Origin: a virus
Taxonomy: Duplodnaviria; Heunggongvirae; Uroviricota; Caudoviricetes
Reading direction: 5' to 3' (one strand)
Length of the DNA stretch: 43,871 nucleotides
Virus record (IMG/VR): IMGVR_UViG_3300001282_000006
Shown here: piece by piece, positions 8,169 to 32,643 of the stretch
Layout of the letters: the number at the start of each line of letters is the position of its first letter
Numbering within the stretch: position 1 is the first letter of the stretch
Notes under the pieces: model-generated
The model's database searches: none
What the model saw: only the letters and a program-made list of their open reading frames with translations
What the model was told of the DNA's origin: nothing
Translations under genes and position numbers: made by a program

Positions 8169-8245
8169 ATATTTTTATTATTTTTGTAAAAAAATATCAA
8201 AAGAGATAAAAACTTTTTAATATATACACATACAATAAAATATAT

Positions 8246-8317
8246 TGCGGGGTAGAGCAGGGGTAGCTCGCTAGGCTCATAACCTAGAGGTCGGAGGTTC
8301 GAATCCTTCCCCCGCTA
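8246..8317 (+). tRNA. tRNA-fMet (CAT)
   Basis: Cloverleaf; anticodon arm ctagg-ctCATaa-cctag; mismatched 1:72 pair. Confidence 0.9.
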
Positions 8318-8335
8318 CTAAAAAAATAAAAAATA

Positions 8336-8532: not shown

Positions 8533-8547
8533 GTTTTAAATTAAATT

Positions 8548-8638
8548 GGGAGTGTAACGTCAGCGGCATGTAAGCCGCCCCTCGTAAATATATGGCGTAT
8601 GGCTTGAGGTAACTAGTGTTCGAATCCTGGTACTCCCA
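8548..8638 (+). ncRNA. Atypical tRNA-like gene (no D arm, GTA in a 6-nt loop)
   Basis: Acceptor gggagtg/tactccc, GTTCGAATC T loop, hairpin gcggc-atGTAa-gccgc, long extra arm. Confidence 0.55.
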
Positions 8639-8644
8639 CAAAAT

Positions 8645-8824: not shown

Positions 8825-8855
8825 TTTGGATAATTAAAAAATATCCTTATCTTTG
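8825..8855 (+). promoter_or_regulatory. Bacteroidota-type promoter for the second Glu/Tyr pair
   Basis: TTTG (8825) ... TATCTTTG (8848). Confidence 0.75.
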
Positions 8856-8871
8856 TAAAAGAATAAAAAAT

Positions 8872-8943
8872 GGTCCGTTAGTGAAGCGGTTAACACGCTG
8901 CCCTTTCACGGCAGAGGCACGGGTTCGAATCCCGTACGGACTA
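8872..8943 (+). tRNA. tRNA-Glu (TTC)
   Basis: ctgcc-ctTTCac-ggcag. Confidence 0.93.
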
Positions 8944-8949
8944 CAATAT

Positions 8950-9032
8950 TGGAAGGTGGGTGAGTGGTTAAAACCGACAGACTGTAAATCTGTTCTCGCA
9001 AGAGTACGGGGGTTCGAATCCCTCCCTTCCAA
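8950..9032 (+). tRNA. tRNA-Tyr (GTA)
   Basis: acaga-ctGTAaa-tctgt; long variable arm. Confidence 0.93.
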
Positions 9033-9098
9033 CAAAAATTAAAAATAACTAAAAAGGGAGTTAAAACTTTTTATATATACATTAATATAATTAAAACG

Positions 9099-9243: not shown

Positions 9244-9333
9244 TGGCGAATAGCAGTGGTGTCTTATACACACTATACCTGTAGCGGTAACTTGAGATAG
9301 TATCAAACGTGGGTTCGAATCCCACTTCGCCAA
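9244..9333 (+). tRNA. Atypical tRNA-Ile-like gene (TAT), no canonical D arm
   Basis: Acceptor tggcgaa/ttcgcca; perfect T arm gtggg-ttcgaat-cccac; ggtgt-ctTATac-acact. Confidence 0.6.
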
Positions 9334-9341
9334 CAAAAATT

Positions 9342-12346: not shown

Positions 12347-12391
12347 AGACTTATATATTAAATTTTATACCTAATAAATAATATATACTGA

Positions 12392-22098: not shown

Positions 22099-22183
22099 CG
22101 GTAGGTACCCGAGCGGTCTTCAGGGACTAGTCTGATACACTAGGTGAGAAATCACAACGTGGGTTCAAATCCCACCCTACCGA
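22099..22183 (+). tRNA. tRNA-Ile (GAT) with long variable arm
   Basis: ctagt-ctGATac-actag; V arm gtga-gaaa-tcac. Confidence 0.8.
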
Positions 22184-22189
22184 CAAAAT

Positions 22190-22436: not shown

Positions 22437-22522
22437 TGATGGGTGTCCTGAGCGGCGAAAGGACCTGGCTGTTAACCAGACGACATTAAAGTCCACCGTG
22501 GGTTCGAGTCCCACCTCATCAG
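22437..22522 (+). tRNA. tRNA-Asn (GTT) with long variable region
   Basis: ctgg-ctGTTaa-ccag; 17-nt variable region; G73. Confidence 0.78.
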
Positions 22523-22528
22523 CAAGAT

Positions 22529-23200: not shown

Positions 23201-23284
23201 GCCGATGTGGCTCAGTGGCGACAGCACTGGTTTTGTAAACCAGAGACGAATAGTCCAACGGGGGTTCGAGTCCCTCCATCGGCT
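23201..23284 (+). tRNA. tRNA-Thr (TGT) with long variable region
   Basis: ctggt-ttTGTaa-accag; variable region agacgaatagtccaac. Confidence 0.82.
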
Positions 23285-23299
23285 CAAAATAAATCACCT

Positions 23300-23414: not shown

Positions 23415-23501
23415 CGCGGGGTAGAGTAGAGGTCAAACTCACTGGGCTCATAACCCAGGGTTGCGCAAGTGACACGTCAGGTTCGAATCCTGCCCCCGCT
23501 A
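23415..23501 (+). tRNA. Initiator-type tRNA-Met (CAT) with long variable arm
   Basis: C1 mismatch; ctggg-ctCATaa-cccag (3 GC pairs); V arm gttgc-gcaa-gtgac. Confidence 0.8.
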
Positions 23502-24873: not shown

Positions 24874-26346
24874 ATGAAAAACATCGTAACAAGAATCGCA
24901 CCCTCACCAACTGGACCTTTTGCTCATATTGGTAATGTAAGAACACTATTATATAACTACTTTCTTGCTAAGAAAAGTGGTGGTAAATTCTTTGTGAGAT
25001 TGGAAGACACCGACAGAGACCGTTATACGGCTTCGTTTCTAACATATTTCAAAGATATGTGTGATTGGCTTGGTATAGTACCAGATGGTTCTTATTGGAA
25101 CCCAGATCCTTCTATCGGCTCTTTCACTCAATCAACAAGAGATTATTCTGATAAAGTTAAATTTTTATTAGATAACGAATTTGCTTATTATGCTTTTGAT
25201 TCTAAAGATGATTTAGACTTGGCTCATAAAACAATTCCTAACTTCAAATACGATGCTACAACTCGTATGACTATGAAGAACTCATTAACAATGACTAAAT
25301 CGGATGTTGATGCGGCTATTGCTACAGGTAACTATGTTATTCGTTTTGCTGTAACTCCAGATGTTGATGTTGTAATCAACGATGCTATTTTAGGAGATAT
25401 CACAATCAGTACTAATACTTTAGATGATAAAGTTTTGATTAAGTCAAATGGTATTGGTTCTTACCACCTTTGTAATGTTTGTGACGACCACGATATGGGT
25501 GTTACTCACGTTCTTAGAGGTAACGAGTGGGTAAACTCAACTCCTTTCCATGTTATTCTTTACAAGGCTTTTGGTTGGGATGTTCCAACATTCGCTCATC
25601 TACCTTTAATTATGAATCCAGATGGTAAAGGTAAGTTGTCTAAGAGAACTGCTATGAAGTATGGTATTCCAATTGCGCCACTTGGTTACACTGACGAAAA
25701 CGGTGTTTACAATGATGGTTGGAAAGATTTAGGTTTTGACCCAAAAGCATTTATGAACTATCTTGCCTTAATTGGTTGGAATCCAGGTGCTGAAGTTGAA
25801 ATTATGTCTATGGATGATATGATTAACTCATTCTCTTTAGATAGAGTTCACAAGGCTGGGGCTCGTTTCGATATGGATAAAGCAAAGTGGATGAACTCAC
25901 AATATCTTAAATTAACAGACAATAAAGACTTAATGCCTTATGTCCATGTAGTTGATGATAGATACTCTGATGATAAGTTAGATGCTATTGTTTCATTGGC
26001 TAAAGATAGAGCTGACTTCAAAACTGACTTAAACAAAATTGTTAAATTGTTCTTTGATTTACCAACTATCGATGATAGAAGTAAGTTAGATGATAACTAT
26101 ACAAAAGTTATGTCAGACTTCATCAATAAGATTGATACAATCAACTTTGATGATACGAACTCAATCAAAGACACTATCTCAGCAATCTGTAATGATTTAG
26201 GTGTTAAGATGGGTAAAGTAATGCCTGGTTTAAGAATGGCTTTAGTATCTGGTATTGCGGGTCCGGACTTAATGACAACAATGTCAATTTTAGGTAAAGA
26301 CCAAACTAAGTTGAGAATTAACAACTCGATTGTAGTAATGGCTTAA
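24874..26346 (+). CDS. gltX: Glutamate--tRNA ligase
   Basis: RIAPSPTG..HIGN, RLEDTD, THVLRGNEW, FAHLPLI, KLSKR, C-terminal anticodon domain. Confidence 0.95.
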   Translation: MKNIVTRIAPSPTGPFAHIGNVRTLLYNYFLAKKSGGKFFVRLEDTDRDRYTASFLTYFKDMCDWLGIVPDGSYWNPDPSIGSFTQSTRDYSDKVKFLLDNEFAYYAFDSKDDLDLAHKTIPNFKYDATTRMTMKNSLTMTKSDVDAAIATGNYVIRFAVTPDVDVVINDAILGDITISTNTLDDKVLIKSNGIGSYHLCNVCDDHDMGVTHVLRGNEWVNSTPFHVILYKAFGWDVPTFAHLPLIMNPDGKGKLSKRTAMKYGIPIAPLGYTDENGVYNDGWKDLGFDPKAFMNYLALIGWNPGAEVEIMSMDDMINSFSLDRVHKAGARFDMDKAKWMNSQYLKLTDNKDLMPYVHVVDDRYSDDKLDAIVSLAKDRADFKTDLNKIVKLFFDLPTIDDRSKLDDNYTKVMSDFINKIDTINFDDTNSIKDTISAICNDLGVKMGKVMPGLRMALVSGIAGPDLMTTMSILGKDQTKLRINNSIVVMA

Positions 26347-28669: not shown

Positions 28670-28785
28670 AACTTATATATTAAAAAAGTAATTTCAGATA
28701 TTATTTAAATTAATTCTTAATAAATTTGGATATTGTGGATAACCTCCGTATATTTGTATATAAGTAGAAAAAAACTATAGACAAG

Positions 28786-31732: not shown

Positions 31733-31810
31733 TTTGACAAATTAAAACTTTGTTGTATATTTGTATAAAATAAGAACAAAAGGAAGAAATCCTTTTTAAT
31801 ATATACTGAA
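31733..31810 (+). promoter_or_regulatory. Dual-promoter cassette upstream of leader 3
   Basis: TTTG (31733), TATATTTG (31756), TAATATATA (31798). Confidence 0.78.
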
Positions 31811-31909
31811 ATGAAAAACTTAAACTTAAATATCGTTAACCCGCAACCACAAGTTGTAATCGATCAGGATCCTGATACGAAAGGGGCTAACTATGTGGTT
31901 TTAAGTTAA
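31811..31909 (+). CDS. Leader peptide 3, MKNLNLNIVNPQPQVVIDQDPDTKGANYVVLS (Pro/Gln/Asp sensor)
   Basis: CCG CAA CCA CAA ... GAT CAG GAT CCT GAT; GGCTAACT (31885-31892) pairs with AGTTAGTC in the terminator arm. Confidence 0.8.
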   Translation: MKNLNLNIVNPQPQVVIDQDPDTKGANYVVLS

Positions 31910-31933
31910 GAAAATATTTAACTATGAAACATT

Positions 31934-31966
31934 ACCCAGTTAGTCGAAAGATTAACTGGGTTTTTT
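31934..31966 (+). terminator. Intrinsic terminator of attenuator 3
   Basis: acccagttagtc-gaaa-gattaactgggt followed by a T run. Confidence 0.9.
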
Positions 31967-31981
31967 GTTTTTAGTAAAAAA

Positions 31982-32055
31982 CGGGTAGTGACTAAGGTTT
32001 TAAGCACGGGGGCTCTGGAGGCTTCAGTTAGTCGGTTCGATTCCGACCTACCCGA
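31982..32055 (+). tRNA. Atypical tRNA, anticodon CTG (Gln) or TGG (Pro) depending on register
   Basis: Perfect acceptor cgggtag/ctacccg and T arm; anticodon region ggggg-ctctggag-gcttc. Confidence 0.6.
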
Positions 32056-32098
32056 CAAAATACTCTTTAGAGAATAGAGTAAAAGAATTCTCAAATAC

Positions 32099-32171
32099 GG
32101 ATGTGAGGTCAAACGGTTAAGATGTCTGCCTGTCACGCAGTTCGGAGCGGGTTCAACTCCCGTCACGTCCG
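32099..32171 (+). tRNA. tRNA-Asp (GTC)
   Basis: ctgc-ctGTCac-gcag; G73. Confidence 0.9.
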
Positions 32172-32177
32172 CAAATT

Positions 32178-32248
32178 GGTCCTGTAGTTAAACGGCTATA
32201 ATGTCGCCCTGCACGGCGAAGTTCGGAGTTCGATTCTCCGTGGGACCG
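32178..32248 (+). tRNA. tRNA-Asp-like gene with 6-nt anticodon loop (ctgcac)
   Basis: Asp-like body and G73; tcgcc-ctgcac-ggcga, one nt short of ctGTCac. Confidence 0.65.
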
Positions 32249-32253
32249 CAAAA

Positions 32254-32330
32254 CGAGATGTTGGGGAGTCCGGTTACCCCGCCTGCTTTGGGAGCAGGAG
32301 AACTCGCAGGTTCGAATCCTGCCATCTCGA
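32254..32330 (+). tRNA. tRNA-Pro (TGG)
   Basis: cctgc-ttTGGga-gcagg; C1-G72. Confidence 0.93.
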
Positions 32331-32360
32331 CAAAGAAACAAAATATTAATAAATAGAATT

Positions 32361-32411
32361 ATGAAAACAACATCACAATACCAACAACAACAAATTAATC
32401 GAACAGATTGA
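32361..32411 (+). CDS. Leader peptide 4, MKTTSQYQQQQINRTD (Gln sensor)
   Basis: Five CAA codons; CAGATTGA (32404-32411) is the exact complement of TCAATCTG in the terminator. Confidence 0.85.
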   Translation: MKTTSQYQQQQINRTD

Positions 32412-32439
32412 TAACGGTATCGTATTGTTAAAACTTTAC

Positions 32440-32474
32440 AAACCCTATTCAATCTGATTGAATAGGGTTTTTTT
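32440..32474 (+). terminator. Intrinsic terminator of attenuator 4
   Basis: aaaccctattcaat-ctg-attgaatagggttt followed by a T run. Confidence 0.9.
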
Positions 32475-32476
32475 AT

Positions 32477-32548
32477 TGCTCCATAGTATATGGGTGATCA
32501 TATCTGTCTTTGAAACAGATGAGCTTGGTTCGAGTCCAAGTGGAGCAA
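32477..32548 (+). tRNA. tRNA-Gln (TTG)
   Basis: tctgt-ctTTGaa-acaga; U1-A72. Confidence 0.9.
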
Positions 32549-32554
32549 CAACAA

Positions 32555-32625
32555 TGTCTCGTAGTGTAACGGCAGCACAGAAGATTTTGACTCTTCTAGT
32601 CTAGGTTCGAATCCTAGCGAGACAA
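32555..32625 (+). tRNA. tRNA-Gln (TTG)
   Basis: gaaga-ttTTGac-tcttc; U1-A72. Confidence 0.93.
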
Positions 32626-32643
32626 CTAAAAAATATAAAAATT

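Follow-up and report, generated by a model that had tools for sequence, protein, structure and literature searches.

Unit D, a segment carrying tRNA genes in the 43,871-nucleotide stretch of viral DNA analysed here (hereafter the window), is likely to be a classical four-region ribosome-mediated (leader-peptide) attenuator that gates Pro and Asp tRNA genes. What the sequences themselves show is a short open reading frame with a codon bias, a terminator and alternative pairings that are conserved, and leaders that match their tRNA cargo across units. Translation of the leader, ribosome stalling, read-through and the trigger are inferred, and there are no experimental data. The reading also assumes that the polymerase obeys intrinsic terminators and that transcription and translation are coupled in the host, neither of which is established. 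The window is AT-rich and contains 32 tRNA genes identified by ARAGORN in three clusters, together with five units of this kind: A (8401), B (9099), C (21912), D, and E (32361). The features of unit D and of the adjacent unit E gate are listed in Table 1.

Table 1. Coordinates of the sequence features of unit D and the neighbouring gate in the window.
Feature	Position	Strand	Comment
Host-type promoter-like site	31734-31763	+	TTGACA, 16 nt, TATATT; 11 of 12 consensus matches
Motif TAATATATAC	31797-31806	+	4 nt before leader ATG; phage promoter or start-context motif
Leader ORF	31811-31909	+	ATG 31811, TAA 31907-31909; 32 codons plus stop; kept in 13 orthologues
Region 1 (putative anti-antiterminator strand)	31830-31842	+	codons 7-11; pairs with 31884-31896 in the predicted minimum-energy fold of the full leader
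Regulatory codon block	31841-31876	+	3 Pro, 3 Gln and 3 Asp within 12 codons
Region 2	31884-31900	+	core GGCTAACT at 31885-31892; partner is region 1 or the terminator 5′ arm
Region 3 (terminator 5′ arm)	31934-31945	+	
Region 4 (terminator 3′ arm and U-tract)	31950-31972	+	arm 31950-31961, U-tract 31961-31972
Pro(UGG)-like tRNA, weak D arm	31982-32056	+	relaxed ARAGORN only; tRNA-like domain match; orthologues in L001 and L002 called tRNA-Pro
tRNA-Asp(GUC)	32099-32172	+	ARAGORN
Asp-derived tRNA	32178-32249	+	6-nt anticodon loop CTGCAC; one base missing relative to L003 orthologue (CTGTCAC)
tRNA-Pro(UGG)	32254-32331	+	ARAGORN
Next gate, unit E	32361-32626	+	poly-Gln leader 32361-32411, terminator 32440-32470, two tRNA-Gln(UUG), then GlnRS

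The predicted leader peptide is MKNLNLNIVN PQPQ VVI DQDPD TKGANYVVLS, in which PQPQ corresponds to codons 11-14 (31841-31852; CCG CAA CCA CAA) and DQDPD to codons 18-22 (31862-31876; GAT CAG GAT CCT GAT). Nine codons of a stretch of 12 thus specify proline, glutamine or aspartate, against a background frequency of 0.134 for these three amino acids in the 10,077 codons of the long ORFs of the window (binomial tail 2e-6). We compared all 467 small ORFs of 15-60 codons on both strands, and there is not a single one among the other 466 with more than six such codons in a comparable stretch, so that the bias in the unit D leader is unique in the window and beyond chance. The codons used are CCG, CCA, CCT, CAA, CAG and GAT, and under standard wobble rules the anticodons UGG, UUG and GUC can read all nine of them. 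We note that the DQDPD codons contain a 14-nt palindrome (31863-31876, with a GGATCC core) that could be considered a designed pause hairpin; it forms a small hairpin in the window and is lost in L001, L002 and L006, and we treat it as a probable by-product of the codons.

Immediately downstream of the leader is an intrinsic terminator composed of a 12-bp stem (31934-31961), a GAAA loop and a T6-G-T5 tail, with a predicted dG of -18.5 kcal/mol. The initial annotation proposed that PQPQ and DQDPD lie just upstream of a segment, GGCTAACT, that forms 8 bp with AGTTAGTC, including one G.U pair. This holds, and the positions are confirmed: GGCTAACT is present as a single copy in the window, at 31885-31892, and its partner is at 31938-31945 within the terminator 5′ arm. 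Taken alone, the complementarity is modest and within chance; the best duplex between the leader and the terminator arm has an energy of -11.4 kcal/mol (z -1.7), which is equalled in 19 of 300 shuffles (p about 0.06). Folding predictions nonetheless show two mutually exclusive arrangements. In the full-length fold, region 2 (31884-31896) pairs with region 1 and the terminator forms; when the terminator 3′ arm is withheld, the minimum-energy fold pairs 31886-31892 (plus 31895-31896) with 31934-31944, and this 2:3 pairing excludes the terminator. The last Asp codon of the regulatory block ends 8 nt before the GGCTAACT core, and the stop codon sits between regions 2 and 3. From these coordinates we infer that a ribosome whose A site holds a regulatory codon would cover about 12-15 nt downstream, leave the GGCTAACT core free and sit between regions 1 and 2 so as to block the 1:2 pairing, and that a ribosome at the stop codon would cover the 3′ half of region 2. 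A second copy of TAACTATG (31920-31927) was considered as a further part of the switch and rejected, as it is present only in the closest relatives.

These features suggest the following mechanism. Transcripts from the promoter or promoters within 31734-31806 would begin with the 32-codon ORF. If the leader is untranslated, or if a ribosome reaches the stop codon, region 2 would be held by region 1 or lie inside the ribosome, the terminator and its U-tract would form, and transcription would end 9 nt before the first tRNA gene. A ribosome delayed at Pro, Gln or Asp codons would sit between regions 1 and 2, and region 2 would then be free to pair with the emerging 5′ arm; this 2:3 pairing would prevent formation of the terminator, such that the polymerase enters the Pro-like, Asp, Asp-derived and Pro tRNA genes and proceeds towards the Gln gate of unit E. 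The predicted outcome is negative feedback, in which tRNA-Pro and tRNA-Asp are made when the decoding of their codons is limiting.

The region around unit D matches two uncultured huge phages, LR745206 (635 kb) and LR756502 (642 kb), at 75-78% identity; both belong to a group of megaphages larger than 630 kb, the sources being a Japanese sub-surface sample and a lake in France (PMC9723777). We gathered 13 orthologous D units, all from huge uncultured phages, through the GlnRS neighbourhood, the Pro-like tRNA and a leader-only pattern, and aligned them (alignment A2). The regulatory codons have mean column entropies of 0.22 and 0.15 bits at codon positions 1 and 2, and 0.75 bits at position 3; in two of the Pro codons all four bases occur at the wobble position, where the entropy is as high as 1.57 and 1.88 bits. 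The C-terminal half of the leader varies by non-synonymous changes even in close relatives (D22G, T23S, K24I, G25E and S32G in A2). What is constrained is therefore which codons stand at particular places, and neither the peptide nor the plain nucleotide sequence. An N-terminal motif, MK(N/T)xNxNI, is common to several leaders, and its codons coincide with region 1.

Both the 2:3 and the 1:2 alternatives are predicted in every orthologue. For the 2:3 helix, 88% of the alignment cells are paired, compared with 6-60% when the partners are slid. There is little covariation signal within the D orthologues (one double change, equalled in 36 of 500 shuffles): conservation is too high and three divergent rows are misaligned, so we examined the pairing of these rows one by one. 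Where the arms are altered the pairing persists: L008 has a perfect 10-bp helix, L006 has a G-C to U-A double change, L017 and L002 retain pairing through G.U, and in L010 the arm has moved and matches ACTATG. The 1:2 helix is paired in 76% of cells, with five pairs changed on both sides, and only 9 of 500 shuffles do as well. We also searched IMG/VR with the leader-only pattern, which places no constraint on terminators or tRNAs; it recovered eight D-type short ORFs, every one with Asp and Pro tRNAs behind it and several with Gln tRNAs as well, and one unrelated short ORF without tRNAs behind it.

The first gene behind gate D is the Pro-like tRNA, which begins nine bases after the U-tract, and no promoter-like site was found when we looked for one between the terminator and the tRNAs. 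Only Pro and Asp types are present in the unit D array in the window, and two of the four cargo genes look aberrant, one with a weak D arm and the other with a 6-nt anticodon loop. Although Gln accounts for three of the nine regulatory codons, there is no Gln tRNA in the unit's own array in the window; two tRNA-Gln(UUG) genes lie beyond it at 32477-32626, behind the leader and terminator of unit E (32361-32470). A Gln tRNA is present inside the D array in L010, L017 and L043, and we infer that the Gln codons of the leader may reflect an ancestral Asp/Pro/Gln cargo. The initial annotation's claim that the downstream tRNAs are limited to the three amino acids is accurate with one correction: nothing but Pro and Asp types occurs in the unit's own array, Gln(UUG) being found behind the unit E gate and, in three orthologues, Gln inside the array. 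Its proposal that the leader gates these tRNAs through P, Q and D codons is supported by conserved sequence features, with function remaining an inference, and the gene it described as Gln/Pro-like is corrected to Pro-like, with anticodon UGG. Its suggestion of a dependence on EF-P is not supported, as a Pro-Pro pair is absent in all 13 orthologous leaders.

Several other features of the tRNA genes deserve mention. The orthologue of the short-loop Asp tRNA in L003 (L003:3447-3521) has a normal loop, while L004 (3244-3315) has another short-loop variant at this location; the window copy may have decayed to a pseudogene, may result from an assembly error, or may carry a deliberately altered anticodon loop. 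The spacer at 32057-32098 (also L001:1087-1146) contains a small hairpin, ACTCT ... AGAGT, followed by AAAAGAATTCTCAAA. The hairpin is conserved in both the window and L001, and it could act as a processing signal. The first element behind each of gates A-D is an aberrant or oversized tRNA-like gene (8547-8640, 9244-9334, 22099-22184 and 31982-32056), either uncalled or called with an odd anticodon loop or long arm. The Ile(GAU), Asn(GUU), Thr(UGU) and Met(CAU) calls at 22099-22184, 22437-22523, 23201-23285 and 23416-23500 are 85-87 nt in length with long extra arms or inserts, which is unusual for these tRNA identities.

The start of the leader resembles the starts of established genes. The sigma-70-like TTGACA-16-TATATT site is located 50 nt upstream, and its second box also reads TAnnTTTG, the Bacteroidota -7 type (TATATTTGTA at 31756). 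The TAATATATAC motif is enriched over shuffles; it is located 3-5 nt before the ATG of seven long genes and of the leaders of units C and D, and it precedes the tRNA-Met at 8246. Because the motif is common to the leader and the long genes, the leader starts where real genes start. In its shorter form, the context of TAATATATA, 3-5 nt and an ATG is the same for the unit D leader and the seven long genes, and in unit D it lacks a Shine-Dalgarno sequence (Bacteroidota-type, possibly near-leaderless). The promoter and 5′UTR cassettes of units C and D are about 85% identical, which points to duplication followed by re-coding.

More broadly, the window contains 15 sites with TAATATATA[ACG], many of them placed 3-5 nt ahead of a gene's ATG and one 18 nt ahead of the tRNA-Met at 8246; examples are at 12379, 31339, 31797 and 21898, and on the minus strand at 28682, 42658 and 16878. 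It resembles a phage promoter that would give leaderless or near-leaderless mRNAs, and the TAnnTTTG-type promoter-like sites suggest a Bacteroidota-type host, both being inferences from sequence alone.

Unit D does not stand alone. Its sister units A, B, C and E have an identical architecture, each with its own regulatory codons, region 2 and terminator arm, and it is probable, as an inference from these sequences, that the window units are diverged duplicates. Unit E has a leader with a four-Gln run within QYQQQQ, and the GlnRS gene (32644-34248) lies directly after it. Any read-through from unit D may pass into unit E; TAATAAATAG lies 4 nt before the unit E ATG and is a candidate for its own start, an alternative to dependence on D read-through that is not excluded. 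We have also identified many more such units in other huge phages, both related and more distant, among them those at L009:433, on the reverse strand of L014 (3240 and 5806) and on the reverse strand of L019 (201).

Nine unit types, with unrelated leaders and arms, were used for tests across units. When the 12 codons preceding region 2 are compared with the amino acids of the unit's own tRNA array, the true assignment of leaders to arrays is the best of all 362,880 permutations (1/362,880), and when the duplex energies between leaders and terminator arms are scored, only 3 of 362,880 permutations match the true assignment; for the unit D leader individually, its own arm ranks third among the nine. 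If the attenuator reading is correct, the match of leaders to arrays would give a practical rule in which the leader predicts the tRNA content of the array and the array predicts the leader. Gating is not obligatory, as there are arrays without a leader in the related phages L013 and L015.

Within the window, the tRNA-Met (8218-8318) and a second Glu-Tyr pair (8848-9033) have their own promoter-like sites and no leader; with these ungated genes (8246 and 8872-9033), gated and ungated copies of the same types coexist. A GluRS-like gene (24874-26346; class I E/Q catalytic domain plus Anticodon_2) was considered as another gated synthetase and rejected, as there is no Glu-rich leader; upstream of it is a 45-codon hydrophobic ORF. 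In L016, a frame at 600-690 reading QYTQG.KP.GTG before a terminator matches the Pro/Gln/Tyr/Thr/Gly array behind it; it lacks an ATG and is closely preceded by a stop, which could mean that the unit has decayed or that it starts at a codon other than ATG.

Other explanations can be advanced for this organization. The simplest is that an ordinary terminator insulates the array, that the small ORF is there by chance, and that the tRNAs are expressed from another promoter or by leaky read-through. In its favor, the 8-bp complementarity is by itself within chance and short ORFs are common in AT-rich DNA, as the 467 in the window attest. However, this would leave unexplained a codon bias that is unique in the window, the conservation of the ORF with wobble-only variation and the recurrence of the leader-cargo match in nine independent units, as well as the lack of a promoter-like site between terminator and tRNAs, and we consider it very unlikely. 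It is similarly improbable that the ORF encodes a functional small peptide whose composition is unrelated to the tRNAs. The shared N-terminal motif is consistent with such a role, but the codons of that motif are those of region 1, the C-terminal half varies freely in close relatives with only the regulatory codons and pairing segments being kept, and the composition tracks the cargo across units.

A third possibility is that the RNA senses tRNA directly without translation, either in the manner of a T-box or by pairing of region 2 with the product tRNA or its precursor via CAGTTAGTCG. Some support comes from 10 nt that the terminator arm has in common with the first downstream tRNA (32025-32034), 8 nt in L001, which might let this tRNA or its precursor compete for region 2. 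Against this, there is no match to the T-box or to any other Rfam leader family even at E values up to 1; neither the other units nor those D orthologues in which tRNA-Gln comes first contain the shared word, which lies in the T stem of the folded tRNA; and the wobble-only codon variation is not accounted for. We regard direct sensing as very unlikely also. As an observation in its own right, the shared 10-mer links the terminator 5′ arm (31937-31946) to the variable-loop/T-stem region of the Pro-like tRNA, and region 2 or region 4 might also pair with the nascent tRNA; as a general rule the shared word was rejected, since it occurs only in unit D of the window and in L001. Also unlikely is a model in which the leader is translated and senses Pro/Gln/Asp decoding with an output other than intrinsic termination, such as Rho-type polarity or a stalling-dependent cleavage or processing event that decides tRNA maturation. 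The matched codons show only that decoding is sensed, the helices are predictions, and the unit D antiterminator is weak alone. However, every unit has a canonical hairpin plus U-tract directly before the first tRNA, and in every unit a stretch lying after the regulatory codons and ahead of the stop finds its best pairing in that unit's own terminator arm. Control by attenuation of intrinsic termination remains our preferred reading.

A bolder interpretation, which we consider fairly probable, is that huge phages run a set of codon-resolved demand sensors, with each tRNA block placed behind a leader written in the codons its tRNAs read. As part of this interpretation, unit D would be a trivalent Pro/Gln/Asp sensor in series with the Gln sensor of unit E, which would also gate GlnRS; transcripts from the D promoter would reach the Gln genes only if both gates open, and the units would have arisen from a duplicated promoter-leader-terminator cassette, with the leader subsequently re-coded and region 2 and the terminator arm changing together. 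In the full-text literature searched we found no description of the control of tRNA genes by an attenuator, or of feedback control of phage tRNA genes; two papers considered as precedents (PMC3890552 and PMC3082878) proved irrelevant to attenuator control of tRNA genes. If the attenuator reading is correct, phage tRNA sets are more than constitutive codon-usage patches: their supply would be regulated according to how decoding proceeds in the infected cell, and possible triggers would include host tRNA loss, tRNA-targeting defences and a codon-usage mismatch late in infection. As sensors for single tRNA pools, the units would also be compact and open to re-coding.

Attenuation by a leader peptide is well established in operons for amino-acid biosynthesis and in one synthetase operon, and unit D has the sequence features that define it: a short translatable ORF (translation itself not being observed), cognate codons, an intrinsic terminator, a 2:3 antiterminator with weak statistics alone, and a 1:2 anti-antiterminator that overlaps or precedes the regulatory codons. 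In common with the trpL, hisL, leuL, thrL and pheL leaders, it combines a short ORF containing regulatory codons with 1:2, 2:3 and 3:4 helices, an intrinsic terminator and a stop codon between regions 2 and 3, with several amino acids per leader; the multivalent leaders of ilvGMEDA (Leu/Val/Ile) and thr (Thr/Ile) are nearest in logic. The antiterminator and terminator energies of the trp leader, near -11 and -20 kcal/mol respectively, are of the same order as those of unit D. It differs from the enterobacterial leaders in being carried by a phage and in its cargo, which is composed of four tRNA or tRNA-like genes and so falls outside the classical scope of biosynthesis or synthetase genes. The unit D leader also lacks an Rfam leader family match, with no match to the His, Leu, Thr, Trp and Phe families at the gathering score or at E values up to 1, and its regulatory codons for three amino acids are interleaved and not in a run.

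While the element works like the trp, his, leu, thr, ilv and pheA attenuators, its purpose is more like that of the T-box switches and the pheST attenuator. A T-box is likewise a terminator/antiterminator switch that ties translation-related genes to the state of a specific tRNA, but it has no ORF, and uncharged tRNA is bound directly by its specifier codon and T-box sequence; none is detectable in unit D, with no match to RF00230 and only weak matches to PyrR, CopA and BTnc005 that fall far below gathering scores. In the E. coli pheST attenuator, the pheM leader precedes the genes for phenylalanyl-tRNA synthetase. That system differs from unit D in that it controls a synthetase gene, responds to a single amino acid and is cellular rather than viral, but in both, on the reading preferred here, leader-peptide attenuation acts on a component of the translation machinery and responds to how much cognate charged tRNA is available, and unit E, with its tRNA-Gln genes and GlnRS, provides the closest parallel.
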